Positions 7,111 through 62,410 of a stretch of DNA of 64,000 nt are shown here, piece after piece (the first letter of the stretch is position 1; each line of letters begins with the position of its first letter). The notes under the pieces were generated by a model, which saw only the letters and a list, made by a program, of their open reading frames with translations, made no database searches and had not been told where the DNA came from. The DNA comes from Thermoanaerobaculia bacterium (GTDB lineage: Bacteria; Acidobacteriota; Thermoanaerobaculia; Multivoradales; JAHEKO01). A program made the translations under genes and the position numbers. The DNA is taken from NCBI GenBank assembly GCA_046756565.1, contig JBHHWO010000003.1, positions 144 through 64,143 of the forward strand. The letters run 5' to 3'.

Positions 7111-8429
7111 GCTTGCGGATCCGGCGGATAGAGCGCCTCTGACGCGCGCGACGGTAGGCCGAAGCGCTCGCGAAGCGCGGTTCTCGCCCAGCCCACGAGG
7201 TAGAGCGACCCGCAGACGACCAGGGGCGCATCACCGTCCAGAAGCGCCTCCAGCGCCTTTTCGCGCTCCGCTTCTACCTGGACTTCGCGATGCGGCAGCC
7301 ACGGCCGCAGAGTCTCCGGATCCAGCGCTCGATCGCTGGGTGGCGAGGTCAAGACGATCCTCGCCGCCGTCATCGACACCGCCTCGAGCACCGCCCGGGC
7401 GTCCTTGTCCGACAGGATGCCGAACAGGAGATCGAAGTCACCTTGGATCGCAGTCAAGAACTCCGCAAGAGCCTTCGCGCCCTGGGGATTATGGGCAGCG
7501 TCGAGCCATACCGTCTTTCCGGTCGGCAGCACCACCTTTTCGAGACGCCCGGGCCAGCGACAGCGCCGCACGCCCTCTTCGATGGCCGGCCGGTCGAGAC
7601 CGCTCCAGCCTTCCGCCGCCAGCCGTTCGGCGGCTGCGACGGCCACCAGCAGATTGCGCAACTGGTGCTCGCCTGGCAGAGCCAGCTCGAGCTCGTAGCG
7701 TGCTGCCCGGGTCTGAACGCGCACGAACTGACCGTGGTCCCGAGGCTCCGAGCTGACCCGTTGGATCGAGTCGGCGACTTCCTGCAGCGGCGTACCCAGC
7801 TCGTGTGCGTGAGCGGCGAGTCCATCCCGTGCCTCGGCGGCAGTCGCGCCACTCAGGGCAGCCACGCCGGGCCGGAAGATTCCGGCCTTTTCCCGCGCGA
7901 TCGCCCCGAGCGTTTCTCCCAGCTGCGTTGAGTGATCGATGCCGATCTCGGTCACCACCGAAAGGCTGGGCGAGCAGGAGTTGGTCGCGTCCAGCCTCCC
8001 CCCCATGCCGACTTCGAAGACCGCCAGATCGACTTCGGACCGCGCGAACCAGAGAACGCCTGCCAGAGTCAGCGCCTCGAAGTAGGTTGGCGGCTCGAGG
8101 CCAGCCGTCTCCGCGTTGCCGAGTATCTCCCGCAGAAGATCGGCCAGCGCGGATCGTCCTATCGCAACGCCGTCGATTCTCAACCTCTCCTCGACCGACT
8201 CGAGGTGAGGCGAGGTGAACAGACCTGTGCGGTAGGCACCGGCAGCGACGATGGAGGCCAGAAGAGCTGCGGTCGAGCCCTTGCCGTTGGTTCCTGCGAC
8301 CAGAATCGTCGAAAAGGTCCGCTCGGGACGCCCGAAGTGGTCGAGCAGGTTCTCGACCCGTCCGAGCTCGAGACGCACTCCCCAGCTCTCGAGGACACCC
8401 AGAATACGGTCCGGGTCGCGTTCGACCAT
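7101..8429 (-). CDS. folC: Dihydrofolate synthase/folylpolyglutamate synthase
   Basis: Mur-ligase fold with P-loop [10 protein letters not shown]; conserved accD-folC adjacency; 10-bp convergent overlap with glyA. Confidence 0.9.
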
Positions 8430-49671: not shown

Positions 49672-51555
49672 ATGGGCTTCGAAAGTCTTGCCGCTAGCGC
49701 TTTGCGCCAGGTGCGCATACGAAATCAAGGTGGTCTCGCAGTGACACTCCCGATCGAAGAAGTCCTCGAGGGCAAGTACGAGATCCTCGAGAAGATCGGT
49801 GAGGGCGGAATCGGATCCGTCTACAAGGTCCGCCACCGGTTGCTCGACGAGATCCGGGTCATCAAGGTCCTGCGGCCCCAAGTCGCGGCCAAGGAAGATC
49901 ATCAGGAGCGCTTCCTTCACGAAGCCCGCATGGCGATTCGGCTCAAGCACCCGAACATCGCCCAACTCCACGATTTTTCGATCTCCGACGAAGGCACCGC
50001 CTTCATCGTCATGGAGTTCATCGACGGCATCGCACTCGACGCCCTACTCAAGGCCTCCGGCCCGCCCAGCCTCGATCTGACGCTGGAGATGGCGCAGCAG
50101 TCATTGCGGGCACTGGCCTATCTCCACTCTCATGAGCTGGTTCACCGCGATGTGTCGCCGGACAACTTGATGCTGACCACGTCGTTCGACGGCACCGCGC
50201 GCATCAAGCTGATCGACCTGGGCATCGCCAAGAACCTGGCCGAGGAAAGCAACCTGACACAGACGGGCGTTTTCCTGGGCAAGGTCCGTTACTGTTCACC
50301 CGAGCAGTTCTCGAGCGCGGAAGATCAGACCCGGCCGCTCGATCATCGCAGCGACATCTACTCATTCGGACTACTGCTTTACGAGCTCCTGACCGGTATC
50401 TACCCGTTCAAGGGCGAGACCTTTGCCGAGCTGGCGGGCTGCCATCTGTTCCAGCCGCCGATCGGTTTCGATCAGACGGATCCCGAGGGCAAGGTGCCCG
50501 ATGAGTTGCGCGAGGTCGTGCTGCGATCCATCGCAAAGGATCCCGAGGACCGCTTCTCTACCGCCGAAGAGTTCGTTCAGGAGCTGCTTCCGTTTCGCGA
50601 CACCGAGAGCTCGATCGAGGACGAGCTCAATCGCACGGTCGAGCGAACGACCTCAGCGATCGCTCTCAAGAACTACACTCGCCCGGGTTCCACCCAGGAC
50701 CGTCTGAACGCCGAGTTCGGGCTCGGCACCACGGCCGCGCCCAAGCCGCTGACCGAGGCTCGGCAGCCAGAAGCAGCTGGCGCAAGAGGTACGGCCTCGG
50801 CGGTATTGCCTACAGCCGGCGGCCCGGCCAAGAAATGGTGGTGGATCGCCGGAGGCGGCGCAGCCGTGGTCCTGGCGGGTCTCGGCATCTGGCTCGGTAG
50901 CTCCGTTCTGGGCCGAGACTCGGGCGACACGGCGGGTGACGGCTCCTCCGAGGCGCAGGCTATAGAGATCGCGCAGACCGAGAGATTCACTCTTCCCGAG
51001 GTTGACCCCGACCGGGTGGCTCTCGACGCCGCGCTGCCTCCTCCGCCCACCGGAGACGAAGAGAAAGCGGCCCCTCAGGTCGAACCTGGAACTGATGCTC
51101 CCGGTCCCTCCCAGCTCGGACCGGACCCGGACCCGGAAGACGGACGCCGGCCTCCGCTCGGTGACCCTCAGTTCCAGGGGAGACCCCCACCCCACGGTGG
51201 GCGTCCGCCGCCGGGGAGTCGGCCGGGAGAGCTCGGTCCACCACCGATCGGCCGGACTTCGGAGATCTATGAGACCAGCGTGGGGGTGGTCGCTCCGGTG
51301 CTGGAGATGCTGCCCGAGCCGATGTATCCGGACGGCAAGCGGCCCAAGAACCGTCTCACGGTGGACGTCGCGGTGCTGGTCGACGAGGAAGGCAAGGTGC
51401 TCACCGCCCGGGTCGAGGCCGGCGCAGGGTTTCGGCGCCGCTTTCGCGACGCCGCCATCGAGACCGCGAAGCGATCGAGATTCCGCCCCGCGGTTCGCAA
51501 CGGCGTCGCAGGCCGCATGTGGACCAGTCTCAAGATCGTATTCGAGACCGAGTAG
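49672..51555 (+). CDS. Ser/Thr protein kinase with TM helix, Pro-rich periplasmic linker and C-terminal TonB_C-like domain
   Basis: Kinase motifs IGEGGIGSVYKV, VIKVL, HRDVSPDNLML, DLGIAK, SPEQ. TM WWWIAGGGAAVVLAGLGIWLG. PPxxG-rich spacer. C-terminus ...PEPMYPDGKRPKNRLTVDVAVLVDEEGKVLTARVE...AAIETAKRSRFRPAVRNGV... resembles TonB_C. Confidence 0.8.
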   Translation: MGFESLAASALRQVRIRNQGGLAVTLPIEEVLEGKYEILEKIGEGGIGSVYKVRHRLLDEIRVIKVLRPQVAAKEDHQERFLHEARMAIRLKHPNIAQLHDFSISDEGTAFIVMEFIDGIALDALLKASGPPSLDLTLEMAQQSLRALAYLHSHELVHRDVSPDNLMLTTSFDGTARIKLIDLGIAKNLAEESNLTQTGVFLGKVRYCSPEQFSSAEDQTRPLDHRSDIYSFGLLLYELLTGIYPFKGETFAELAGCHLFQPPIGFDQTDPEGKVPDELREVVLRSIAKDPEDRFSTAEEFVQELLPFRDTESSIEDELNRTVERTTSAIALKNYTRPGSTQDRLNAEFGLGTTAAPKPLTEARQPEAAGARGTASAVLPTAGGPAKKWWWIAGGGAAVVLAGLGIWLGSSVLGRDSGDTAGDGSSEAQAIEIAQTERFTLPEVDPDRVALDAALPPPPTGDEEKAAPQVEPGTDAPGPSQLGPDPDPEDGRRPPLGDPQFQGRPPPHGGRPPPGSRPGELGPPPIGRTSEIYETSVGVVAPVLEMLPEPMYPDGKRPKNRLTVDVAVLVDEEGKVLTARVEAGAGFRRRFRDAAIETAKRSRFRPAVRNGVAGRMWTSLKIVFETE

Positions 51556-51585: not shown

Positions 51586-53811
51586 TTACAGGATCTCGAC
51601 TTCGACCGGGCCTTTGAGCCGCATCATGCAGGCCAGTCGGCACGGGCCGGCTTCGAGCTCACAGATCTCCTCCAGCGTCTCACGCTCCTGATCCGAAAGC
51701 TCGTCCACGTTTTCGGCGCCCGACAACACGCGCACGGGGTCGCTGCCGCAGATTCCGGAATGACACTCCGCGGTGATCTGCACGCCCGCGGCTTCGGCCG
51801 CCTCGCAGACGTTGGACCCGGCGGCAACCGGCACCGACTCGCCGGTACCCTTGAAGGTAGCGGTCGGGCCCTCGGCCGCGGCGCTCCCGTCCGCTTCCCG
51901 GGCAGCGCCAACGGCCGGCGGTGACTCGGCAAGGCCCTCGTCCAGAACCTCCTCGGCGCCCCGGCTGAACAGGAAGGACTGCTGTCCCATGCGGATCCGG
52001 TCTCCGTGCTCCAGGAGGCGCGCGGCGCGGACTTTCAAATAGGTGCCGTTGACGCTTTTGAGGTCCTTGATCAGGATCGCTCCGCCCTCGGCGGACACCG
52101 CGAGATGGCGCCGCGAGAGCGTCGTGTCCTCGGCGTCGAGGATCCCCCCGGGCGCCTCGCGTCCGAAGATCATCGGCTTGTCTCCGAGCTCGTAGCGTCC
52201 CTCCTCGGCGCCCGCTGCGTCGTAGTGAATCACCGCCATTTCGCCGCCATCGATCGAGAACAGCAGGAACTGGCGGCCGACACGCACCAAGTCCCGGTCT
52301 CCGACCTCGATCTTCTTGGCAGCTTGCGCGCGCAGGAAAACGCCCGTGGCTCCACCGTCGTCGCGCACGAAATAGCCTTCCTCGCTGTGCGCCACCGATC
52401 CGTGGACATTCGACAGTGTCGAGTCGTCGGCAAACGCCAGATCACAGCCGGAGCGCCCGATGGTCACGACTCCTTTGACGGGCAGCGGATACTCGTCCTC
52501 CTGGACACCCGTGGGAAGCACGCGAATCAAGAGGGGCCCAGCGGAGACCTCTTCGCGGCCGGGCTCCAGGCTCTCCTCGGGCGGGCCGCTAGGCTCCGCC
52601 GACCCGGCCGGCGTCCCGGCGACGGCGGATTCGGAGACCTCGAGCTCCGCCTCCTGGATCTCGACGTCGATCTGCTCTTTGCCGTCGATCCGCTGCCGGA
52701 TCACCTGGGCCACTCGCACGCCGTCACGCAGGGCCGACTTGATGTTGCCGCGATGCTTGACCTCCTTGAAGCCGGCAGGGTCGGCGTCGAAATCCTCGGT
52801 CTCGAAGTAGGCCTGGCTCAGCAGATCTCCCACCAGGTACAAGTTGTTCTGGCAGGTCTCGAGGCACCGATTGACCACCATGCGCTTCCTGTTCTTGGGC
52901 CCGCCGTTGACCATGTGAACCCCGAACGAGTTGAGGAGGGCTTCCGGAATGTCCTCGCCGATGCAGGCGATGACCTGCGGCTTGGGAAACTCCAGCAGAG
53001 TGAGCTCGCCGGGCCGTCCGTCCATCCGGCGCCGGTCGGTGCGAATCGCCAGGTACTCCTCTCGGTCGTCGCCGGTCAAGACGGCCACCGGCTCGCTGCG
53101 CCGGTAGTAGCGGATGTTGCCGTTGCCGACATAGGCGGCGAAAAACGCATCCGCCAGGGCCTTGGAGATCCTCGGCATCTTGTCGCCGCGGTAGGACCAG
53201 TAGACCGAAGTGCGGTCTCGGGCCTCGCTCTTGGCCTCGGAAATGGCGATCACCGCCTCGGCGGCCGAGGTTCCACCTCCGATAACGCAGGCGGGCTGCC
53301 CGACGAATCGCTCGGCCTCGGAAAGCTTGTAGGCGATGCCGTCGGTATTGCCGGGGATATCGAAGCGACGCGGTACGCCGCGGCCCAGAGCCAGGACCAC
53401 ATGACGGGCTTCGTAATGCTCGCTTTGGCGTGTCCGGTGGTTCCACAGTGTCGCGCGATAGCCGCCGTTTTCGAGTAGCTCGAGCTCCGAGAGCTCGGCG
53501 CCCACCCGGACCGGAACCTCGTGCTCTCGATAGAGCTCTTTCCATTGCTCGCACATGTCGTCTTTGTCGATCGGATCAAAATGGAGACAGGAGACCAGGT
53601 TCCCTCCCACCGGGAAGCACATCTGATCGCCGCCACCGAAGCTCGGCAGGATCAGCTTGTCCTTGGCGTAGTCGCGAATGCGCTTCATCAGGTCGTCGTA
53701 GTCGACCACCAGAACGCCGATGCCGAGCTCGACCGCGCGGAAGGCCGTGGCCGTACCGGCCGGGCCACCGCCGGCGATGAGAACGTCCACCGTTTTCGAA
53801 GACCCAGCCAT
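51586..53811 (-). CDS. Multidomain protein: two-dinucleotide-binding FAD/NAD(P) oxidoreductase, two FHA domains, C-terminal ferredoxin-like (2Fe-2S-type) domain
   Basis: VLIAGGGPAGTA and VIGGGTSAAEA Rossmann motifs. FHA 1: TIGRSGCDLAF...VFLR...VGRQFLLF. FHA 2: IFGRE...LSRRHLAV...IKDLKSVNGTYLKV...GDRIRMGQQSFLF. C-terminus ...AECHSGICGSD...CRLAC.... ATG at 53811 (4 bp after the upstream gene's stop); the track extends to 53889. Confidence 0.7.
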   Translation of the reverse strand: MAGSSKTVDVLIAGGGPAGTATAFRAVELGIGVLVVDYDDLMKRIRDYAKDKLILPSFGGGDQMCFPVGGNLVSCLHFDPIDKDDMCEQWKELYREHEVPVRVGAELSELELLENGGYRATLWNHRTRQSEHYEARHVVLALGRGVPRRFDIPGNTDGIAYKLSEAERFVGQPACVIGGGTSAAEAVIAISEAKSEARDRTSVYWSYRGDKMPRISKALADAFFAAYVGNGNIRYYRRSEPVAVLTGDDREEYLAIRTDRRRMDGRPGELTLLEFPKPQVIACIGEDIPEALLNSFGVHMVNGGPKNRKRMVVNRCLETCQNNLYLVGDLLSQAYFETEDFDADPAGFKEVKHRGNIKSALRDGVRVAQVIRQRIDGKEQIDVEIQEAELEVSESAVAGTPAGSAEPSGPPEESLEPGREEVSAGPLLIRVLPTGVQEDEYPLPVKGVVTIGRSGCDLAFADDSTLSNVHGSVAHSEEGYFVRDDGGATGVFLRAQAAKKIEVGDRDLVRVGRQFLLFSIDGGEMAVIHYDAAGAEEGRYELGDKPMIFGREAPGGILDAEDTTLSRRHLAVSAEGGAILIKDLKSVNGTYLKVRAARLLEHGDRIRMGQQSFLFSRGAEEVLDEGLAESPPAVGAAREADGSAAAEGPTATFKGTGESVPVAAGSNVCEAAEAAGVQITAECHSGICGSDPVRVLSGAENVDELSDQERETLEEICELEAGPCRLACMMRLKGPVEVEIL

Positions 53812-53815
53812 CTCT

Positions 53816-54670
53816 TCAACCTTCCTCGACCAAACGTCCCTCGAGGCGGCCGAAGACGACCCGCTCTCCGACCGGAAGCTCGACTTCACCCTCCGTCTGG
53901 GCGCCCGCCACGAACGTGTGGTTGCGGCTGCCTTCGTCGCGCACCAGCACCTTGTCGCCCGTCACGGTCACTACCGCGTGACGGCGAGAGACGTCCGGGA
54001 CGTTCAGGCGCACTCGGGCGTCCTTGGTGCGACCGACGAGGTTTTCGCCCTCGTCGAGCTGGAAGCGCTGGACTCGGCCCGCCATCTGGAGCTCCAGAAA
54101 CAGGCGGCGGCCGGGCGCACCCGGCTGCGCAGGCCTGCTTGCGCTCGCGCTCGCCTCGGCCAGGATCTCGGGAATCGGCACGACGACCTTCTCGACACGA
54201 GTACCGCCGTCGTCCGCCAGCTCCTTGGACGCGGCCGGCTTCTTTTCTGCCAGCTCGTCCTCGGACCGCTTCTCCTCGGCTCCGTCGTCGCGCAGGGCCG
54301 CCGGCAGAATTGGGATCTCGCCGTCCGTTTGCGTCTTGTCGACGGGAGGGATATCGATGGTGTCGAACTCACCGCCTTCGGTATCGAGAGCCTGAAAGAT
54401 AAACCTCTCGCTACCGCCGAAGCAGACCATGCTGAGCGGACCGATCGGCTCCGGCCGCTCGAGGCGCACGCCGTCCACTTCGGTGCCGTTCAGGCTTCCG
54501 AGGTCCTCGATCAGATACCTCTCGCTGTCGGTATCGAACGCAATCCGGGCGTGCTCGGTCGACACCACCGAAGCCTGGATGCACACCGTGCTCTCGGCCG
54601 AGCGCCCGATCGTGGCCTCGGCGCCGATCTCGAACTCACCGTGCTCGCGTGATATCAGTTTTGCCTTCAT
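53816..54670 (-). CDS. Tandem FHA-domain protein
   Basis: FHA 1: ...ATIGRSAESTVCI...VSTEHARIAF...YLIEDLGSLNGTEVDGVRL.... FHA 2: ...LVGRTKDARVRLNVPDVSRRHAVVTV..VLVRDEGSRNHTFV.... ATG at 54670 overlaps the upstream stop by 4 bp. Confidence 0.75.
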   Translation of the reverse strand: MKAKLISREHGEFEIGAEATIGRSAESTVCIQASVVSTEHARIAFDTDSERYLIEDLGSLNGTEVDGVRLERPEPIGPLSMVCFGGSERFIFQALDTEGGEFDTIDIPPVDKTQTDGEIPILPAALRDDGAEEKRSEDELAEKKPAASKELADDGGTRVEKVVVPIPEILAEASASASRPAQPGAPGRRLFLELQMAGRVQRFQLDEGENLVGRTKDARVRLNVPDVSRRHAVVTVTGDKVLVRDEGSRNHTFVAGAQTEGEVELPVGERVVFGRLEGRLVEEG

Positions 54671-56247
54671 GGTGCTTCGTCCAAGTACAAGAGTAGCTCC
54701 GACCGGCGACTCTTGTTGGGGTGGAACAGGTGGCACGTGACACAGCGATCCGACGCCAGGCGAGCGGCATGGCACCGCCGGCAGGAGTCGATCGCCGGCA
54801 GGTTCTGGATCGACGCGTTATCGAGGCTCGTATCCGGAGGGTCTTCGGCTTCGAGCTCGTCTTCGATCGGGATGCGGTCGTGGCAATCCAGGCAGCGCGC
54901 CTGCAGGATGTGCGCGCGATGATCGAACTCCGCCCGCCGCAGGGCTCGCTGGTCCTTCTGGACACGGCCGATGGTGGCGTCCTCGACCCGGTGACACTGC
55001 CTGCAGGGCGTCGTCAGCTCTTCGACCAGAAGCTCGATCGAGACCACCTCGTCTTCCGAGAGGTCGGTGCTCTTATCGCCCAGGGCCAGCTCGAAGACCG
55101 TCTCGTCGAGCGCCGCGAACGGCTCTTCCACCTCGCGCGCGAGCTTTCCGAGGAGATCCTCGATCGCGGCCAGCTCGGCCTGAATCTCTTGCTCCGGCCG
55201 GCCCCGCAACCCGATCGCCTGCTCCTCGAGGGCGCCGATGGCCTCTCTATAGAGCGCTCGCAACTCATGGGGCTCGGTGTTCGGCGAGGTCTCGAGGAGA
55301 TCGGCCAAACCCGCGCTCGGATAGAGCATCTGGCGCAGCATGCGCAGGTTCTCCAGAATCCACGGATCTCGGTGGTGGACCGGCCCCTTCACGACCAGGG
55401 AACCGCGGCGGCGATACTCGTTGGGGTCGGTGAAATACGCCCAGCGGATGCCCGCGCCCTGGTCGGCGATGATCTGCTCGAGTGTAGCCACGCCTGGTGC
55501 TCCAGCGCCGGTGCGGATCGGTAGCCCCGGAGTCGAGACCGTCGACGTCAGGTGGCAGGAGTCGCAGTGCCGATCGAAGTCGATCAGCTCGAAGCTCCGG
55601 CCATCCGGTTTGGCGTTATGGCAGTAAAGGCAGGATCTTTCGACGTCGGTGAGCTTCTGGCGCTTCATCACTTCGCGTACGTGGTGAACGTGGGCAAATG
55701 ACAGGCTCTCGTTATCTGCGATCTGCTCGGCGACGAAGTCGAACTCGGGGTGCTCGCTCGTGAAGGAATCGAAATGGCATCGCTCGCAGCGCTGGTCGGC
55801 GACACGAGTGATCGAGGCATCCCGGCCCTCGTGCTCGAGGTGACAGGTGAAGCACGGCACCTCGTGCTCTCCCGGCACCAGGCGGCGGAAATCGTCGGAC
55901 CGGAAGATGTAGTGAGCAGCGAAGTTGTACACACCCAGCTCATCCCCGAATTTTTCGTGACAGCTCGAACAGAGCTCGTCACTCGCCTGTCGCGCTTCCG
56001 GATCGTGGCAGCTCGCGCACTCACTCTCGAAGGCGGCGTGATTGGACGACAGTGGACCATTTGAAGACAAGGAGCCACGGCCCATGAACTCGTCGACCGC
56101 TATGACGCCGAGTACCAACCCGATCAGAGCCGCTCCCAGGAGCAGCATCTTGTTGCGCGCCGGTCGCGGCGGGTACGCATTGGCGACGGGAAGCTCGCTT
56201 TCGCCGAAGCTCCCTTTCTGGCCGGTCCACTTGTCCTTGGGGCTCAT
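54667..56247 (-). CDS. Membrane-anchored decaheme c-type cytochrome
   Basis: Ten CxxCH motifs (CASCH, CSSCH, CFTCH, CERCH, CLYCH, CDSCH, CRQCH, CLDCH, CRRCH, CVTCH). N-terminal signal anchor MLLLGAALIGLVLGVIAV. ATG at 56247 with a GGAG RBS. The track extension to 56415 overlaps the upstream gene. Confidence 0.8.
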   Translation of the reverse strand: MSPKDKWTGQKGSFGESELPVANAYPPRPARNKMLLLGAALIGLVLGVIAVDEFMGRGSLSSNGPLSSNHAAFESECASCHDPEARQASDELCSSCHEKFGDELGVYNFAAHYIFRSDDFRRLVPGEHEVPCFTCHLEHEGRDASITRVADQRCERCHFDSFTSEHPEFDFVAEQIADNESLSFAHVHHVREVMKRQKLTDVERSCLYCHNAKPDGRSFELIDFDRHCDSCHLTSTVSTPGLPIRTGAGAPGVATLEQIIADQGAGIRWAYFTDPNEYRRRGSLVVKGPVHHRDPWILENLRMLRQMLYPSAGLADLLETSPNTEPHELRALYREAIGALEEQAIGLRGRPEQEIQAELAAIEDLLGKLAREVEEPFAALDETVFELALGDKSTDLSEDEVVSIELLVEELTTPCRQCHRVEDATIGRVQKDQRALRRAEFDHRAHILQARCLDCHDRIPIEDELEAEDPPDTSLDNASIQNLPAIDSCRRCHAARLASDRCVTCHLFHPNKSRRSELLLYLDEAP

Positions 56248-56260
56248 GAGCTCAGCTCCG

Positions 56261-57103
56261 CTAGTAGCGGAGCACCCCCCAAAGATGGAGCCCGAGAAAG
56301 ACGAGCAGCAGAAGCGACGTCGGAACGTGCAGCCAGAGCCAGGCACGCAGGGCCTGTTGCAGTGTGTAGTGCGCGTCGATCTCGAACTTGGCCCGGTAGA
56401 GCTCTTCCAGCTCATCGAGCTTTTCGGCCTCTTCCTCGGGCAGCTTCTCGCGCAGATAGCGGACCGATCGGAGTCTCTCCCGGATACCGCCGGTGATGTC
56501 GAAGAAATAGACCCACCGACGGTTCGGCGCTTGGAGCTTCGTCGCCATCGCGCTGTCGTGCAGATCCCGGATCTCGGTGGCGCTCGAGGCGGCCAGCTCT
56601 GCGGCCCGGGCGCGAATGTCGTCTACGAGCTCCGGAATCCTCTCGTAGAGCACCTCGGTCGACAGACCCGAGGTCATCAGGCGTGGGATCCAGCGCTGCA
56701 TCCCTCGCCCCGCGAGACCGCCGATCACCGTCCAGATGCTCAAGCCGAGCAGCCAGATGGTCACCCATCCCTCGGGCATTCCGAAACCACTGTGAACAAG
56801 AACCAGGAGCAGGAAGAGCGCGCCCCCATACACGTGGAGCACGAGCCAGAGGCGCGACCGGCCGAGGCCGAGGCGGCTGAAGAACGACATCGCCCGCTTG
56901 CGGGCGCTGAGCGCGGTGACCAAGAGCAGCAGCGCCGCGGCGGACCAGCCGAAGATGAGGCTGAGGGTTCCGCCCGGCGCCGCGTCCCACCAGATCGTTC
57001 CGGCGGCATACGCCGACACGACCGCCAGGCACAGGAGCACAAAGCCCCAGACGCCACCGAGTGGAGCTCCCGGCACCGAGAGACCGCTACCCGGTTCGGC
57101 CAT
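56261..57103 (-). CDS. Integral membrane protein with ~5 TM helices and four TM-embedded His (putative di-heme b-type cytochrome)
   Basis: ATG at 57103 in a TGATG junction with the upstream gene. TM helices contain ...LVLHVYGG..., ...LVHSGFG..., ...LWLHVPT..., ...LGLHLWG.... The 355-aa N-terminal extension in the track (to 58168) is an out-of-frame shadow of the upstream gene. Confidence 0.6.
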   Translation of the reverse strand: MAEPGSGLSVPGAPLGGVWGFVLLCLAVVSAYAAGTIWWDAAPGGTLSLIFGWSAAALLLLVTALSARKRAMSFFSRLGLGRSRLWLVLHVYGGALFLLLVLVHSGFGMPEGWVTIWLLGLSIWTVIGGLAGRGMQRWIPRLMTSGLSTEVLYERIPELVDDIRARAAELAASSATEIRDLHDSAMATKLQAPNRRWVYFFDITGGIRERLRSVRYLREKLPEEEAEKLDELEELYRAKFEIDAHYTLQQALRAWLWLHVPTSLLLLVFLGLHLWGVLRY

Positions 57104-58746
57104 CAGGCATCCCCCGTCAAGAGCAATTGAAACTCGTCCAGCGAGCCGATCCGAAACGCGCAGCCCTGCGGGCAGTTGCTGACGCAGGCCGGTCCGTGCC
57201 CCGTGTCCTCGCACAGGTCGCACTTCGAGGCGACCGCCCGGTTCCGTCCCCGCAGGCCGGTCGGAACCATGTCGTCGGGCCACACGGTGGCGGTCTCGTG
57301 CATCACGATGGCGTCGTAGGGGCAGTTGTTGGCGCAATTCGAGCATCCGATGCATACATCCTCGTCGACCGCCACGACTTCGCCGACACCGGCGCGGTGA
57401 ATCGCACCTGTCGGGCAGCCCACCAGGCATACCGGATCGCGACAGTGGTAGCAGGATTTGGCGACCAGCAGATTGCCGTACTTGTTGCCCTCGCGCACGA
57501 AGCGCGGCCTGCCGCCGTGTGTGTCCGCGCAGGCCCGCACGCAGTCGTCGCAACGGGTGCAGGTGTTGAGGTCGATCGCCAGGATGCTGTTGCCCTGGAC
57601 AAGGCCGCTGCGCAGCGCCACTTCGGTGAATTCGGCAAAGCCCACATTGCGGCGCGAGAAACCCGCTTCGCGAATTCGATCGGTGGCGCTCTGCCAGAGC
57701 TGGTCCTCGATCTCCGGCTGGCTCTGAATCAGCTGCTCGACCACCGTCCGGGGGATCTTGATCAGCTCCGCATACTCCACTGACAGTGCAGTCGACTGCC
57801 ATTCGTCCAGGGCCTCGACCACGAACTCGACTTCGCCCAGGGTCATTCCCTTCGACAGATAGGAGACCGCGATCTCGCCGTCGGCGTAGCCCTGCATGAG
57901 CTTGACGAAGCCCGAGCGAACGAGATAAAGGCAGTCGGCGGCCTCCCCGGCCTTGACGATCTCCTCCTCCGGCTCGCACGACACCAGCTCGACATTCTCC
58001 TTGAGCGCGTCGACAAAGACGTCGGTGCAGCCCTGGAAGAGCGGCGTGTTCTTGAGCTGAACCGCCAGCGAGCGCTCCCGGTACAGCTCGTCGAGCTCGG
58101 CCTTGAGCGCCTTCGACTTGCGCTTCATCAGCCGGAGCGCCGCCACCTTGATCTGGACCAGGCGGCACTCGCCGGCGGTCCTGGCGGTCACCGACTGCGG
58201 CCAGCCGCTCATCGAGCCGATCTCACCGATCAGCTCACCCTTGCCCAGGCGCGCCGCTGCGCCCTCAGGCAGATCGAAGTCCATGGTGGCGAGCAGCGTG
58301 ATCCGGCTCGGATCGACCCGAGTCGCCCTGCGCATCAGGACAGTGCCGCCGGCCACGGTGTCGGTCGGCGATTCGGCCGGCGAAGCTCCGATCACCGTGC
58401 GTGAAAGATCGAAGATCGGCCGGGCTCCAGTGGCTTCCGGCCCGACGCCCTGAACGAAGACTTCGACTTCGCCCTCGAGAACGTAAAACGCCAGATCGAT
58501 GTAGGTCCCCTCTTCGAAGAGAACCGAGCCGTTCGCCCAGCGCGCGATCGAGATATCGGGGCTGATCTTCTCGAGGAACCTGTCGTCGAAATCCGAGAAC
58601 AGCTCAATCGCCTTGAGCTCCTCGACCGACGGCTTGTCCGAGATCTCTGCCAGGCCGCTCTCGTCGTCGTACGAGGACCAGCGATCCCGGTACTGCTCCA
58701 ACCGGCGAAACTCGGTCTTGCCCGGCCCGAGGACCTCGTCGCTCAT
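57103..58746 (-). CDS. Fusion of two cyclic-nucleotide-binding (CAP-effector) domains with an NrfC/DmsB-like 4x[4Fe-4S] ferredoxin module
   Basis: CNB 1: ...ELFSDFDDRFLEKI...FEEGTYIDLAFYVLEGEVEV...GELIGEIG...RSVTARTAGEC.... CNB 2: ...LFQGCTDVFVDAL...GEAADCLYLVRSGFVKL...GEVEF.... FeS: CTRCDDCVRAC, CYHCRDPVCLVGCP, CIGCSNCANNCP, CDLCEDTGHGPACVSNCP. No Tat or Sec signal. Confidence 0.8.
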   Translation of the reverse strand: MSDEVLGPGKTEFRRLEQYRDRWSSYDDESGLAEISDKPSVEELKAIELFSDFDDRFLEKISPDISIARWANGSVLFEEGTYIDLAFYVLEGEVEVFVQGVGPEATGARPIFDLSRTVIGASPAESPTDTVAGGTVLMRRATRVDPSRITLLATMDFDLPEGAAARLGKGELIGEIGSMSGWPQSVTARTAGECRLVQIKVAALRLMKRKSKALKAELDELYRERSLAVQLKNTPLFQGCTDVFVDALKENVELVSCEPEEEIVKAGEAADCLYLVRSGFVKLMQGYADGEIAVSYLSKGMTLGEVEFVVEALDEWQSTALSVEYAELIKIPRTVVEQLIQSQPEIEDQLWQSATDRIREAGFSRRNVGFAEFTEVALRSGLVQGNSILAIDLNTCTRCDDCVRACADTHGGRPRFVREGNKYGNLLVAKSCYHCRDPVCLVGCPTGAIHRAGVGEVVAVDEDVCIGCSNCANNCPYDAIVMHETATVWPDDMVPTGLRGRNRAVASKCDLCEDTGHGPACVSNCPQGCAFRIGSLDEFQLLLTGDA

Positions 58747-60914
58747 CGCGATCCTCCTGTCGATCCACCGGAACCGTCAGCGCGGCCGGCCGAGACATTG
58801 GTCGGGCTGACCAGTTTGTAAAGCTCCCGGAGCCGTTTCTGAACCGCCAGGAGAAGCTCCTCGATCGACGCTTCGCCCACCTTGGGAAGCGGTTTGAAAT
58901 CCACGCCCCCCGATGCAATTCCCGCCGCCGAGCCGACGGTGGCCCCCGGGGTCAGCGGTCGCGGCGTCGGCGGGCGGAGTACCCACTCTTCCGAGCGGCG
59001 CTGCTCGGCGAACGTCGTCGTCGACCGAACCGATCCCGAGCTTTCACTCGAGCTCGCACTCTGCCCACGACCGCCCCCGGAAGAGCCCGCCGGCAGCGTC
59101 GCCACGCGCACGTCGGGTACCGGGCCCCGGGACGCGATCACGGCCCTCGCCGACGACGAGATCTCGCCGTCCGCCAGCCGGTGCTGCCAGTGGCGCACTT
59201 CGTTCATGCCGCGCACATAGTCGAAGTCCGACCCGGACGGATGCCCTGCCGACAGCAGGCGCCGATCGGTGACGTAGTGGCAGCCGGTGCAGGTCTCGGC
59301 CCGCGTCTTCGACTGGCGCAGATCCTTCTTGCCCAAACCGAGCGCCGCCAGGTGCCCGGGCCGCTGCCGGCCCAATTCTTTGCCGGCTTCGTTCTTGTGC
59401 GGCTCGAGCCAGTCCGCCGCGGGCCCGTGGCAGCTCTCGCAACCGACCCCGTCGAGCACCTCCCGCGACTCCTTGCCCGAGAGAATCGTGCCGTGGCAAT
59501 CCATGCACACCGCGCGACCGGTGGTCATTTGCGATGTCTTGACGCCATAGAGGCGCGCGATCCTGAGGACGTCGGGATCGCCGTCGAAGAACGGATTCAC
59601 CGAGCGGGAGTGCTCATGACCGAACCACCATTGGTTCTGCTCGGTGTGACAGCCGGCGCAATTGACCGGACCGATGGTCCTACGCTGCGAAGCCGGCCGG
59701 ATACGGATCTTGAACCCTCCCGCGACCCCCGCCGCCCCGGTCGATGCTGCTCGGGCGCCCGGCTCCGCAGAGGCGCCGCCGCTCGAGGCGGGCACGGTCG
59801 AGCCGGGAGAGCTTCCTTCGCTCGGCGGAGTCCGATCTCGCACACCGGAAGCACCGCCACCCGCGGCCGGGGTCCCGTCGGCCGCGGCGACCTCGAAGTC
59901 TTCCTCGGGCTCGATTCCACGAACCAGGTCATCGAGAGATGCGAGCTGCGATGCGTCGGCAGCGCCCAGAAAGCTCCTCGTCGCGCGCGCGATCGTGTCG
60001 GCGGCAGCGAGGAGAGACGCCTCGTTGCCGGGCACCGTGCGCACAGCCTTGACCGCGGCCAGCATCTCATCGACCTGAGAGATCCCGGCTGCGCGGCTGA
60101 CCGCTCGCAACTCGGACACCGCGCTTCGCACCCTGCGGCTCATCGCTTTCGAATAAATGCCGTCGACGGTCGCCTTGGCCATTCCGCGCAGGCTGTACTC
60201 GAGATCGAGCGCCCGGCCGACGACGTACATAACGCGCTTGCGCGACATGGAACGTTCGCGATTGACCGGATCGGTACGGTCGCGAAAGGATCTCAGGAAG
60301 TTGTGTCGAATCTGACCCTGGCTCCACTCGACCAGCTCGAAGCCGGCGCTGCCGGTCGTGTGTCCCCCTTCGTTCACGAGACGTTCGAGCGGTACCGAGT
60401 GGCAGCTGAAGCAGTTCGCGGCGACCGGATACAGGTCGGACGGCCGCCGCATTCCGGCGTTGCGGCTGTCCGCGATGCGCTGGCGGCGGTGCGCTGCCGA
60501 TTCTCCCGTATGGTCCTCGGCCGCACCGTAGTCGTTGTGGACGTCGAGGTAGTCCGCCCCGGCGCCGTGACACGACTCGCAAGAGACGCCCGAGACCACT
60601 CGGATCTGCCCGCTCTGGATGACCGGCGTGTAGTGGCAGCTGAAGCAGAGGCTGTCGCGCTTGATCAGGCGAAAGCCCATCTTTTTGGCGATCGTCTCCG
60701 CCTGCTCCTTCTTGTGAAGTGTCTTGAATCCGGTCGCGTGCGGAGTTGTCTTCCAGACCACCGCCTCGTGGATGTGGCATTCACCGCATTTCTCCGCCGT
60801 AACCACCTTGTTCGGGTCGATCTTGGCGTACTCGAAGAAGGGCGGTTGGGCCCGCAGGGGCGCGCACAGCGCCAGGCCGATCAGCAACACCCCCGCTACG
60901 ACTGGTCGTTTCAC
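58743..60914 (-). CDS. Secreted octaheme c-type cytochrome with Ser/Gly-rich low-complexity segments
   Basis: Signal peptide MKRPVVAGVLLIGLALCAPLRAQ. Eight CxxCH motifs (CGECH, CFSCH, CESCH, CFSCH, CAGCH, CMDCH, CESCH, CTGCH). Confidence 0.8.
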   Translation of the reverse strand: MKRPVVAGVLLIGLALCAPLRAQPPFFEYAKIDPNKVVTAEKCGECHIHEAVVWKTTPHATGFKTLHKKEQAETIAKKMGFRLIKRDSLCFSCHYTPVIQSGQIRVVSGVSCESCHGAGADYLDVHNDYGAAEDHTGESAAHRRQRIADSRNAGMRRPSDLYPVAANCFSCHSVPLERLVNEGGHTTGSAGFELVEWSQGQIRHNFLRSFRDRTDPVNRERSMSRKRVMYVVGRALDLEYSLRGMAKATVDGIYSKAMSRRVRSAVSELRAVSRAAGISQVDEMLAAVKAVRTVPGNEASLLAAADTIARATRSFLGAADASQLASLDDLVRGIEPEEDFEVAAADGTPAAGGGASGVRDRTPPSEGSSPGSTVPASSGGASAEPGARAASTGAAGVAGGFKIRIRPASQRRTIGPVNCAGCHTEQNQWWFGHEHSRSVNPFFDGDPDVLRIARLYGVKTSQMTTGRAVCMDCHGTILSGKESREVLDGVGCESCHGPAADWLEPHKNEAGKELGRQRPGHLAALGLGKKDLRQSKTRAETCTGCHYVTDRRLLSAGHPSGSDFDYVRGMNEVRHWQHRLADGEISSSARAVIASRGPVPDVRVATLPAGSSGGGRGQSASSSESSGSVRSTTTFAEQRRSEEWVLRPPTPRPLTPGATVGSAAGIASGGVDFKPLPKVGEASIEELLLAVQKRLRELYKLVSPTNVSAGRADGSGGSTGGSR

Positions 60915-62410
60915 TAGAACTTCAAGACCAGTTCAAAGCGTCCGCCAAAGCCGGTCAGGTCGTCCGAGGCGCCGAGGCCCTCGATGTAGCTCGCGAAGCC
61001 GTCCCAGACCAGGACCACGTGTTTTCCCTTGGCCATCTGGTAGCGAACGGTCGCGGCAGCCTGGTTAGCCACTCCGGAGGCCGTTCCGACCCGAAGACCG
61101 AGTTCGCCGAGCAGCTGGCGGCGAGCCAAGGGACCGTAGAACTTCTGGTAGCCGATCGCGCCGCCGGCGACGTTCCGCGCCCGGCTCGACAGCGGCGCCC
61201 CGTAGTTACCCAGGCCGACCGCGGCAAACGAGACTCCCGCGGGACCCAGCGGCCCGCCCGAAGCCGGCCCACTCGCCGCCGCCGAGTACTCGTCGAGCGC
61301 CAGGAAAGTCGTGAAATAGAACAGATCGAAGCTGTGGTGCGGGGTCCAGGACACCTCGCTGAAGAGCAGCGTGCCGTCGGTGGCAAACGCAGTCTCCTCG
61401 TCCAGGGCAAGCGAGCTCAGGAGTCGAAACGACGTATTGATTTTCCCGATGCGCTGAACCGCACTCACACCGACGCCGACAAGATCGCCGCTCGAGTCGC
61501 TACCGGTCACGTAGGCGAGATCGACATCGATGGTCGAGGTCCGGACATCGGTCGAGGTCAATACCGCAAACAGCTCGGCGTCGCCGTCTTCCACATTGTT
61601 GCGATGCAGGTCGCTCGCCCCGAAGAACAAGGTCGCTCGAAAGTTCGACGTGTTCTTGGGCAACAGGGTGTTGCGAGTGATCCCGACGCCATCTATCGAG
61701 TCATTGATCAGCATGCCTTCCTGGAAGATCAACAGCTGCCGGCCGATCGAGAAACCGACGTCGGTGCGTCCGAAGTCCTGCTTGTCGATCCCCGGAAAAA
61801 TCTCGCCGAACTCACCCTCGAAGTACAGACTCTGGATCTCGGCGTTGAGCTCATCGCGGAAGGCGTCGTCGTCGCCAAACAGCGCCTGGAACTCGGGGCT
61901 CCGCGAGCTGGGCTCGAGGATGTAGCTGGTGAACCGGCCGTCCTGGTCGAAATTGCGGAAACCCAGCACCAGCCGCTCGGTTCCGGTGAGCTGCAAGTTG
62001 GCGAACAGATCGAGCCGATTGGCCCACTCGGTGATCCGGAAGTCGTCGACCTCGAAACTCTGGATCGCGCTGCGCAGCGTGCCGAAAACGATCAAGGTCG
62101 GCTGCCACACGGCGCCGGTCGGAAGCTTGAACCCCGGATTGATGTTGCCGGTGCCCAGATACGGATTGCCCAGCTCGAGCAGAAGCCGTGGCCGCTCGGG
62201 AAGATCCTCGAGCAGCGGAATGTACTCGTCGGTAACCGCGCTCGAGTCATGGGCGCCGTCGTCGCTTTCGCCGTGCGCCTCCCCGACCTCGGGGTCTGAA
62301 GCGACTTCCACCGCGACCGCCGCATGGGCCGGTACACCGGCTCCGGTGGCAAGCAACAGAATCAGACCACCGGCCGCCGCGAGGAGTCCGAGGTCTCTCC
62401 TGCGAGTCAT
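60914..62410 (-). CDS. Outer-membrane beta-barrel protein (porin-like) encoded inside the cytochrome operon
   Basis: Signal peptide ...LLAAAGGLILLLATGAGVPAHA. Alternating amphipathic beta-strand pattern throughout. C-terminus ...GGRFELVLKF ends in the aromatic residue typical of OMP terminal strands. Confidence 0.6.
   Translation of the reverse strand: MTRRRDLGLLAAAGGLILLLATGAGVPAHAAVAVEVASDPEVGEAHGESDDGAHDSSAVTDEYIPLLEDLPERPRLLLELGNPYLGTGNINPGFKLPTGAVWQPTLIVFGTLRSAIQSFEVDDFRITEWANRLDLFANLQLTGTERLVLGFRNFDQDGRFTSYILEPSSRSPEFQALFGDDDAFRDELNAEIQSLYFEGEFGEIFPGIDKQDFGRTDVGFSIGRQLLIFQEGMLINDSIDGVGITRNTLLPKNTSNFRATLFFGASDLHRNNVEDGDAELFAVLTSTDVRTSTIDVDLAYVTGSDSSGDLVGVGVSAVQRIGKINTSFRLLSSLALDEETAFATDGTLLFSEVSWTPHHSFDLFYFTTFLALDEYSAAASGPASGGPLGPAGVSFAAVGLGNYGAPLSSRARNVAGGAIGYQKFYGPLARRQLLGELGLRVGTASGVANQAAATVRYQMAKGKHVVLVWDGFASYIEGLGASDDLTGFGGRFELVLKF

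Follow-up and report, generated by a model that had tools for sequence, protein, structure and literature searches.

PtdB of a Thermoanaerobaculia bacterium, a predicted outer-membrane barrel of the 18-strand class paired with a pentaheme cytochrome in an Acidobacteriota variant of the ptd operon

The ptdABCDEFG operon was defined in 2023-24 in marine Alphaproteobacteria (UBA11136) of oxygen-deficient zones (ODZs), with PtdB as a porin, PtdC as an FAD/NAD(P) oxidoreductase, PtdD as a periplasmic tetraheme cytochrome, PtdE as a protein with cyclic-nucleotide (cNMP)-binding and 4Fe-4S domains, PtdF as a ferric-reductase-like membrane protein, and PtdG as a decaheme cytochrome (bioRxiv 10.1101/2023.11.21.568154). 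The same paper relates PtdA to cytochrome c552 of T. tepidum, names Alpha- and Gammaproteobacteria, Nitrospirales, and Planctomycetes as the host groups, and reports that ptdAB are highly transcribed in the largest ODZ of the ocean (bioRxiv 10.1101/2023.11.21.568154). Among the literature searched, the ptd name occurs in only one paper, and searches on Thermoanaerobaculia with porin and multiheme terms gave no match. Here we analyze a stretch of 64,000 nucleotides from a Thermoanaerobaculia bacterium of the phylum Acidobacteriota (contig JBHHWO010000003.1), below called the window, in which an open reading frame (ORF) at 60914..62410 on the minus strand had been predicted from the letters of the DNA to encode a porin-like barrel between multiheme cytochrome genes. 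Our analysis identifies the ORF as ptdB. We propose, with a probability of about one half, that PtdB holds the pentaheme cytochrome PtdA at its periplasmic mouth and passes a small external substrate to the PtdA hemes, with PtdE, PtdF, PtdG, and PtdD delivering the electrons.

The assignment to PtdB was made via the published description and the ptd-type loci in other genomes, since the operon in the window fits the description of ptdABCDEFG and the upstream cytochrome has the c552 homology of PtdA. As in the published operon, PtdA is encoded upstream of the barrel with an ATGA overlap and has five hemes in its homologues, and PtdE, PtdF, and PtdG are encoded downstream of the barrel. The window differs in its host phylum, which is absent from the host list of the naming paper, and in having no PtdC between B and D, so that the ptdD start shares 1 bp with the ptdB stop. 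It also differs in encoding an octaheme PtdD with two c554 domains instead of a tetraheme, an extra double-FHA protein, and a neighboring Ser/Thr kinase. The original prediction had suggested a distinct barrel family. PtdB does lack any MtrB/PioB, Pfam, or NCBIfam match, but the family and its operon are already named, and the window holds an Acidobacteriota variant of that operon, not a new discovery. What is new here is the invariant PtdA-PtdB adjacency, the more than 45 clusters of PtdA-PtdB fusions, the stand-alone ptdAB pairs, and a four-histidine motif in PtdF; the link of PtdA to c552 stated by the naming paper is confirmed.

The ptdB gene has an ATG start and encodes 498 amino acids followed by a stop. 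Its upstream junction reads ...gacgATGActcgc (5' end gacgATGActc), where the upstream cytochrome gene runs 4 bp into ptdB, its stop overlapping the ATG (ATGA), and its downstream junction reads ...aagttcTAGTGaaacga, where the TAG stop shares 1 bp with the GTG start of the next gene (TAGTG). The N terminus, MTRRRDLGLLAAAGGLILLLATGAGVPAHA/A with the slash marking the cleavage site, is a standard Sec signal; the predicted signal peptide (residues 1 to 30, cleavage after AHA, 62321..62410, minus strand) rests on this sequence reading and on a helix at residues 6 to 22 in the AlphaFold2 (AF2) model. Residue conservation in the signal segment is weak (0.37). The C terminus, ...GGRFELVLKF, has hydrophobic residues at positions -1, -3, -5, and -7 and ends in Phe. 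K497 and F498 reach at least 90% conservation, and in 50 homologues G489, R491, and E493 do not vary. The pattern reads as an outer-membrane protein (OMP) β-signal that is conserved across the PtdB family.

The G+C content of the window is 65%, and antisense to ptdB there is a 426-amino-acid ORF rich in Arg, Gly, and Pro (61019..62299, plus strand), so the length of the ptdB ORF alone proves little. We rejected the antisense ORF as a gene because it is a typical high-GC shadow ORF. The minus-strand PtdB has 997 or more homologues with 53 to 100% identity and matches 780 cluster representatives at 50% identity, most of which come from marine and sediment samples; the identical protein is already deposited, annotated as hypothetical, from a Thermoanaerobaculia metagenome-assembled genome. 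These homologues and clusters, together with the confident barrel model and the invariant synteny, show that ptdB is a real gene.

The AF2 model of PtdB, built from a 50-sequence alignment, has a mean predicted local distance difference test (pLDDT) score of 78.8 and a predicted template modeling (pTM) score of 0.73, and 237 residues reach a pLDDT of at least 90, most of them in the barrel domain. It consists of the signal helix, a low-confidence region at residues 24 to 91, and antiparallel strands from residue 105 to residue 497. The barrel domain (residues 105 to 498, with a long loop at 375 to 411 and the C-terminal ...RFELVLKF) is encoded at 60917..62098 on the minus strand and was delimited from AF2, Foldseek, and conservation. 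When the barrel models were matched with Foldseek against the PDB, the top matches were 18-strand barrels, namely, C. jejuni MOMP (5ldt, E = 4.7e-14), OccK/OprD, and AlgE, followed by chitoporin and a BenF-like porin, with a few 16-strand barrels among the top matches. The E values were 1e-14 to 1e-9, and the target-normalized TM-scores were 0.52 to 0.68. The same matches came from an independent model of a relative with about 42% identity. No porin-cytochrome barrel was in the Foldseek PDB match list of the PtdB model. At the sequence level, Pfam and NCBIfam scans gave zero families at a cutoff of E ≤ 0.1, and searching PDB sequences with a profile of the barrel alignment returned only noise (E ≥ 0.14, with green fluorescent protein-fusion and galectin matches).

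The strand number was derived from DSSP strings and the Foldseek matches rather than from coordinates. DSSP gives 19 long strands, or 18 if residues 146 to 166 are one bent strand, and we favor 18 because both termini are then periplasmic and the structural neighbors are 18-strand barrels. On the strength of these models, PtdB is predicted to be a genuine outer-membrane β-barrel of the 18-strand class with both termini in the periplasm. The signal peptide, the amphipathic β-strand periodicity, and the terminal-Phe OMP signature noticed in the original prediction are thus borne out by sequence, conservation, and AF2, and its call of an outer-membrane barrel by AF2 and Foldseek.

In most of the predicted strands, the residues of one parity are polar with at least 90% conservation, and those of the other are hydrophobic and vary. 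The invariant residues include 18 Arg and 24 Asp or Glu, many of them inside predicted strands, and none of the invariant positions is a His, Cys, or Met, so the barrel should have no cofactor ligands of its own. With the conservation on the lumen-facing parity, PtdB looks like a membrane barrel whose interior is under functional constraint. The best-conserved parts of the protein lie outside the strands. They are an N-terminal periplasmic segment of residues 57 to 104 (62099..62242, minus strand; conservation of 0.81, above that of the barrel itself), the Gly-, Pro-, and Ala-rich loop at 375 to 411 (0.85), and a turn at about residues 198 to 217. The segment has the family consensus S-x-L-T-D-E-x-I-P-L ... 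P-x-R-P-x-x-L-L-E-L-G-x-P-x-L-G-x-G with many invariant residues, its pLDDT is low in the model of PtdB alone, and in natural PtdA-PtdB fusions it comes after the linker. It may be a docking or plug element.

PtdA is encoded at 62407..>64000 on the minus strand as a pentaheme c-type cytochrome with a C-terminal immunoglobulin (Ig)-like β-sandwich. Only the 3' part of its gene is inside the window, with four CXXCH motifs; the N terminus, including the signal peptide and heme motif 1, is beyond the window end, and full-length homologues are about 600 amino acids long and have five motifs. PtdA shows homology to cytochrome c552 of T. tepidum (5ze8) with E = 1.9e-9 for the single sequence and 2.1e-15 for the profile, and the alignment extends to the GHxxPTG motif of the Ig-like β-sandwich. 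This places it, by sequence, in the superfamily of T. tepidum c552 and ExtKL (MccSep) with a "pentaheme cap" and an "Ig-like stem." About 150 positions are invariant across phyla, which looks more like an enzyme than a relay, and from this conservation we regard PtdA as a putative enzyme. A role as a polysulfide reductase of the MccSep type was considered and rejected, as PtdA has no invariant Cys outside the CXXCH motifs and matches 9wt8 only with E = 0.18.

We investigated the synteny of the PtdA and PtdB loci by tblastn. In the survey of relatives, one genome per species was scanned, which gave 210 relatives, and the best 80 were examined. PtdA is directly upstream of PtdB in all 82 loci with upstream DNA present, from at least seven phyla, and it is better conserved across loci than the barrel (51 to 83% versus 41 to 74% identity). 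In two loci (L087 and L088), ptdAB occur alone as a stand-alone pair. The two proteins thus appear to form an obligate two-protein module. The porin-cytochrome arrangement of the original prediction and its ATGA and 1-bp overlaps with multiheme cytochrome genes on both sides hold, and the arrangement is conserved across phyla; its choice of the octaheme as the docking partner does not hold up well, because the obligate partner is the upstream PtdA of about 600 amino acids, a globular protein that has a heme cap plus an Ig-like domain.

In some lineages PtdA and PtdB are covalently joined. Protein P0193 (1,098 amino acids) is PtdA joined to PtdB, and as a query it retrieved more than 45 full-length fusion clusters at the 90% identity level, which are 46 to 85% identical to P0193. 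The fusions are found on contigs of up to 7 Mb, the same lengths recur in many independent assemblies, and the fusion genes sit inside complete operons. No hydrophobic signal-peptide remnant is present at the fusion junction. We rejected a frameshift artifact at the ATGA overlap as their origin, given the more than 45 diverged clusters, the repeated lengths, and the lack of an internal signal peptide. Because natural fusions lack an internal signal peptide, the C terminus of PtdA and the N terminus of the barrel must be in one compartment, which for an even-stranded OMP is the periplasm.

Other PtdB-family proteins have different N-terminal parts. P0178 and P0155 have a peptidoglycan-binding SPOR domain where the fused PtdA otherwise sits, P0130 has a Calx-beta extension, and P0142 and others have long extensions, including low-complexity ones. 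P0347 (1,152 amino acids, from the source "eukprot") is a full-length homologue of the fusion with 43% identity and is probably a bacterial contaminant or symbiont sequence. In P0160 (1,018 amino acids), a PtdB barrel and a low-complexity, apparently out-of-frame stretch are followed by FHA and FNR-like FAD/NAD domains. A frameshift in the assembly is likely, but the sequence still shows a PtdC-like protein with an FHA domain directly after the barrel.

The rest of the operon in the window, all on the minus strand, follows ptdB. PtdA, an octaheme, and a decaheme further down the same operon are the only multiheme proteins encoded in the window, and the periplasmic proteins of the cluster have 23 hemes in total, including the fifth PtdA heme. 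The gene at 58743..60914 encodes a PtdD-like periplasmic octaheme of 723 amino acids with a signal peptide, eight CXXCH motifs, and two cytochrome-c554-type tetraheme domains (PF13435 twice, E = 7.8e-24). Its counterpart in proteobacterial loci is a tetraheme, and the window PtdD is a duplicated form. PtdE (57103..58746) is a cytoplasmic protein with cyclic-nucleotide-binding (PF00027, E = 7e-24) and 4Fe-4S dicluster domains (Fer4 families). PtdF (56261..57103; gene call in L001, weak DUF4405 match) is an integral inner-membrane protein with about five transmembrane segments. Two pairs of transmembrane histidines, H90/H104 and H259/H273, each 14 residues apart, are conserved in 19 homologues, which is the di-heme-b motif of ferric-reductase/NOX-type domains. 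PtdG (54667..56247; gene call in L001) is a decaheme cytochrome with ten CXXCH motifs and an N-terminal membrane anchor.

Two further genes complete the operon. A double-FHA protein (53816..54670, PF00498, E = 2.8e-30), presumed to be a phospho-threonine-dependent regulator, is encoded at a position conserved in Acidobacteriota-type operons, and in operons with a fusion its gene is upstream of the fusion gene. A flavoprotein with Pyr_redox_2, FHA, and 2Fe-2S ferredoxin domains (51586..53811, Pfam matches) is conserved at the operon end. It is the probable electron input on the NAD(P)H side and a functional analogue of PtdC. The proteobacterial PtdC has FAD_binding_6, NAD_binding_1, and Fer2 domains and is not homologous to the flavoprotein of the window, which looks like a nonhomologous replacement of the electron-input module. 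Convergent to the cluster, the window encodes a Ser/Thr protein kinase that ends in a TonB_C domain (49672-51555, plus strand), and Ser/Thr kinases also flank the ptd clusters of L002, L004, L085, L086, and L087. Together with the FHA proteins of the operon, these kinases suggest control of the Ptd system by phosphorylation. Directly upstream of the stand-alone ptdAB pair of L088, a peroxiredoxin (AhpC-TSA) gene is found in the same orientation (7406-8065, plus strand), a single case that is a possible hint of a link to peroxide or other reactive oxygen species (ROS).

The hosts belong to Acidobacteriota, Planctomycetota, Verrucomicrobiota, Bacteroidota (Rhodothermales), Alpha- and Gammaproteobacteria, and Nitrospinales, and many are from aerobic marine heterotroph lineages. 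Those in Acidobacteriota include Thermoanaerobaculia, among them "Ca. Multivoradales," and Holophagae, among them the cultured Sulfidibacter corallicola. On long contigs the operon order is a pentaheme of about 600 amino acids, the barrel, an octaheme of about 700 amino acids, the cNMP/4Fe-4S protein, a membrane protein of 280 amino acids, the anchored decaheme, the double-FHA protein, and often the Pyr_redox_2/FHA/2Fe-2S flavoprotein. Two operon types can be distinguished. In Acidobacteriota and Bacteroidota, the next cytochrome gene abuts the barrel gene, with a B-to-D gap of less than 300 bp in the Acidobacteriota type. In the proteobacterial and planctomycete type, an extra gene of about 1.4 kb lies between B and D, and the gap is about 1.4 to 1.9 kb. 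In L083, which has the full PtdA-to-PtdG order, including PtdC, this extra gene encodes an FAD_binding_6/NAD_binding_1/Fer2 oxidoreductase. The window PtdB is 42 to 48% identical over about 440 residues to the barrels of L047, L059, L076, and L083, which are ptd-type loci of Alpha- and Gammaproteobacteria, planctomycetes, and Nitrospinales. Nine Planctomycetota loci (L043, L049, L052, L053, L055, L058, L060, L073, and L074) have reduced PtdA-PtdB-PtdD clusters by tblastn, in which no nearby PtdE or PtdF was found; six of them (L043, L049, L058, L060, L073, and L074) have a weak PtdG-like match. In L075, L076, and L082, the E, F, and G genes are upstream or on the opposite strand. From these reduced and rearranged loci, the inner-membrane module is more variable than the AB core.

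In the mechanism that we favor, PtdA would be docked on the periplasmic mouth of PtdB via the conserved N-terminal segment and the conserved periplasmic turn; in some lineages the two are covalently fused. The barrel would be a passage for a small soluble external substrate to the PtdA hemes and not a sheath for a heme wire. Electrons would go from NAD(P)H to a flavo-FeS protein (the Pyr_redox_2/FHA/Fer2 protein here and PtdC elsewhere), from there to the cyclic-nucleotide-gated 4Fe-4S protein PtdE, through the two b hemes of PtdF across the inner membrane to the anchored decaheme PtdG, and by the octaheme shuttle PtdD to PtdA. The di-heme motif of PtdF, the FeS domains of PtdE, and the NAD(P)H flavoproteins argue that the electrons leave the cytoplasm bypassing the quinone pool. 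Ptd is predicted to be a trans-envelope electron-transfer system. The analysis establishes the fold, family, and synteny, the fusions, the cofactor motifs, and the homology of PtdA; what we infer is the side on which PtdA docks, the use of the barrel as a channel, the direction in which electrons flow, and a diffusible substrate. A more specific version, which we put forward only tentatively, takes PtdAB as a split or fused "pentaheme Cyc2," a new class of outer-membrane-coupled reductases in which the 18-strand barrel would gate a dissolved oxidant to a catalytic c552-type pentaheme clamped to its periplasmic mouth and powered directly by cytoplasmic NAD(P)H. Candidate oxidants would be chelated Fe(III) or Mn(III), an oxyanion of S, Se, or N, and O2 or ROS. 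The electrons would come through a NOX-like di-heme-b protein and a relay of 10 and 4 or 8 hemes, switched by cyclic nucleotides and Ser/Thr phosphorylation.

Several points weigh against the docking and channel model. Geobacter OmbB-type barrels, which are proposed to pass electrons, are predicted to have only about 20 strands, so a small barrel size alone is insufficient against a heme-wire role. The count of 18 in PtdB needs residues 146 to 166 to be taken as a single bent strand, and the modeled barrel may have 20. The AF2 model of a natural fusion, made from an alignment of 45 fusion sequences plus unpaired halves, has a pTM of 0.52 and a disordered linker and does not place PtdA relative to the barrel; the pLDDT of the conserved N-terminal motif is higher there than in the isolated model, but the alignments differ, so this is not evidence for a contact. 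PtdA does not have the Cys ligand and the selenocysteine or cysteine (Sec/Cys) residue that make MccSep catalytic. The order of passenger, linker, and barrel in the fusions also fits a surface-display system. Finally, the naming paper calls the function of Ptd "completely unknown" (bioRxiv 10.1101/2023.11.21.568154).

The main rival is a conduit of the MtrAB or Pcc type, in which PtdB would sheathe either an inserted element of PtdA or the octaheme PtdD and a continuous heme chain would cross the outer membrane and reduce insoluble acceptors such as Fe(III) and Mn(IV) oxides or electrodes. We consider it rather unlikely. The cytochrome-barrel-cytochrome order and the translational coupling are like those of mtrCAB and omaB-ombB-omcB, the 23 periplasmic hemes of the cluster would suit a wire, and Thermoanaerobaculum aquaticum, a member of Thermoanaerobaculia, is a described Fe(III) and Mn(IV) reducer. 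By geometry, an 18-strand barrel is about 3.3 nm across from Cα to Cα, and its free lumen is far smaller, about 2 nm before side chains and inward loops are counted, compared with the 26 strands of MtrB; PtdA (about 600 amino acids, including the cap and the Ig domain) and PtdD are both globular and much too big to enter it. This makes the MtrAB-like sheathing of a cytochrome, as raised in the original prediction, doubtful, since both the model and the structures that match it best belong to the 18-strand class. In favor of a wire, the naming paper floats extracellular electron transfer for Ptd (bioRxiv 10.1101/2023.11.21.568154), and proteins of the c552 family have an extended β-hairpin and are related to subunits of archaeal cytochrome nanowires (PMC11976967). 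Against it, no MtrB/PioB model matches PtdB, the cluster has no lipoprotein-type or evident extracellular cytochrome, PtdA and PtdD having signal peptidase I signals by sequence, and many hosts are of aerobic marine heterotroph lineages. The electrons apparently come from NAD(P)H via a NOX-like di-heme protein and not from the quinol pool, which is atypical for respiratory metal reduction.

Surface display or export, in which PtdB would export or tether PtdA at the cell surface with the linker threaded through the barrel, takes its support from the layout of the fusions, which is that of type Va systems (signal peptide, PtdA passenger, disordered linker of about 40 amino acids, and C-terminal barrel), and from the conserved barrel interior, which could hold a threaded segment. 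We regard it as improbable. PtdB is of the 18-strand class, not a 12-strand autotransporter, and has no PF03797 match. Besides, c-type cytochromes are loaded with heme and folded in the periplasm, and an 18-strand lumen is impassable for a folded holo-cytochrome of about 600 amino acids. PtdA is encoded separately in most genomes, untethered and with a signal peptide of its own, and in other relatives the SPOR domains at the same N-terminal position are periplasmic. The last alternative is that PtdB is a general or nutrient-specific porin whose only link to the cytochromes is the shared operon, with no specific functional coupling. In its favor is the fold class, which is that of the substrate-specific porins OprD, AlgE, and LamB. 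The adjacency to PtdA across phyla, the translational coupling, and the stand-alone ptdAB pairs make it hardly credible, and the more than 45 independent fusion clusters effectively refute it.

The Ptd genes are widespread, with the barrel in 780 clusters at 50% identity and at least seven phyla. A barrel of a small substrate-channel class, an obligate pentaheme of the c552/ExtKL type, and an input from NAD(P)H change how Ptd should be tested, as the evidence points toward soluble acceptors and a terminal reductase docked in the periplasm and away from a mineral-respiring heme wire, the model that annotation pipelines for "porin-cytochrome" systems would assign. Sulfidibacter corallicola M133 is a cultured carrier of the ptd cluster, with the locus (L039) at about 1.02 to 1.04 Mb of NZ_CP071793.1. 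If the "pentaheme Cyc2" version were true, marine bacteria of many phyla would have a nonrespiratory and regulated trans-envelope "bacterial NADPH oxidase/ferric reductase."

Among known barrels, MOMP, OprD/Occ, and AlgE are the best structural matches of PtdB, but they have only 6 to 14% sequence identity to it with a root-mean-square deviation of about 6 Å, PtdB does not match their families PF03573, PF13372, and PF05538, and none of them is associated with cytochromes. Type Va autotransporters differ by their 12-strand barrel and by PF03797, which PtdB does not match. MtrB is a barrel of 26 strands (PDB 6R2Q) that encloses the MtrA rod; the MtrB/PioB family is marked by large barrels of 26 to 28 strands with room for an MtrA-type decaheme. 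MtrB, PioB, and MtoB resemble PtdB in being encoded between or next to multiheme cytochromes and in the proposed link of periplasmic hemes to the outside. PtdB, in contrast, matches neither PF11854 nor TIGR03509 at the cutoff used for the Pfam and NCBIfam scans and is of the 18-strand class (18 to 19 long strands by DSSP), it is partnered by a pentaheme of the c552 type that has an Ig domain instead of by an MtrA-type decaheme rod, and the ptd cluster has no extracellular MtrC-like lipoprotein. The arrangement of MtrB around MtrA has been described (PMC12203936).

Closer in proposed logic is Cyc2 of Fe(II) oxidizers, in which the substrate would enter the barrel and meet a heme held on the periplasmic side, and in which, as in the PtdA-PtdB fusions, a cytochrome is N-terminal to a midsize barrel on one polypeptide. 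Cyc2 has one heme and a barrel of about 16 strands. The fused PtdA, by comparison, has five hemes and an Ig domain (about 590 amino acids), the window PtdB is unfused and has no CXXCH motif, and no sequence relationship was detected. The other close comparison is with the extHIJKL cluster of Geobacter. ExtKL is in the c552 family with a pentaheme cap and an Ig-like stem (PMC11976967) and is identical to MccSep, a soluble periplasmic reductase of polysulfide and selenite, for which the passage of the substrate across the outer membrane is still open (10.1101/2025.11.18.688581). PtdA differs from it in having no heme-ligating Cys and no Sec/Cys, with the sequence match being marginal, and the Ext cluster has no inner-membrane module of the PtdE/F/G type. 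The likeness is in the pairing, as in both cases a porin-like outer-membrane protein is encoded with a pentaheme of the same superfamily. ExtKL is encoded with the porin ExtI, and deletion of ExtI lowers selenite and tellurite reduction but not that of Fe(III) citrate (PMC5877670), so that the loss of the porin impairs the reduction of the soluble oxyanions that the pentaheme reduces.

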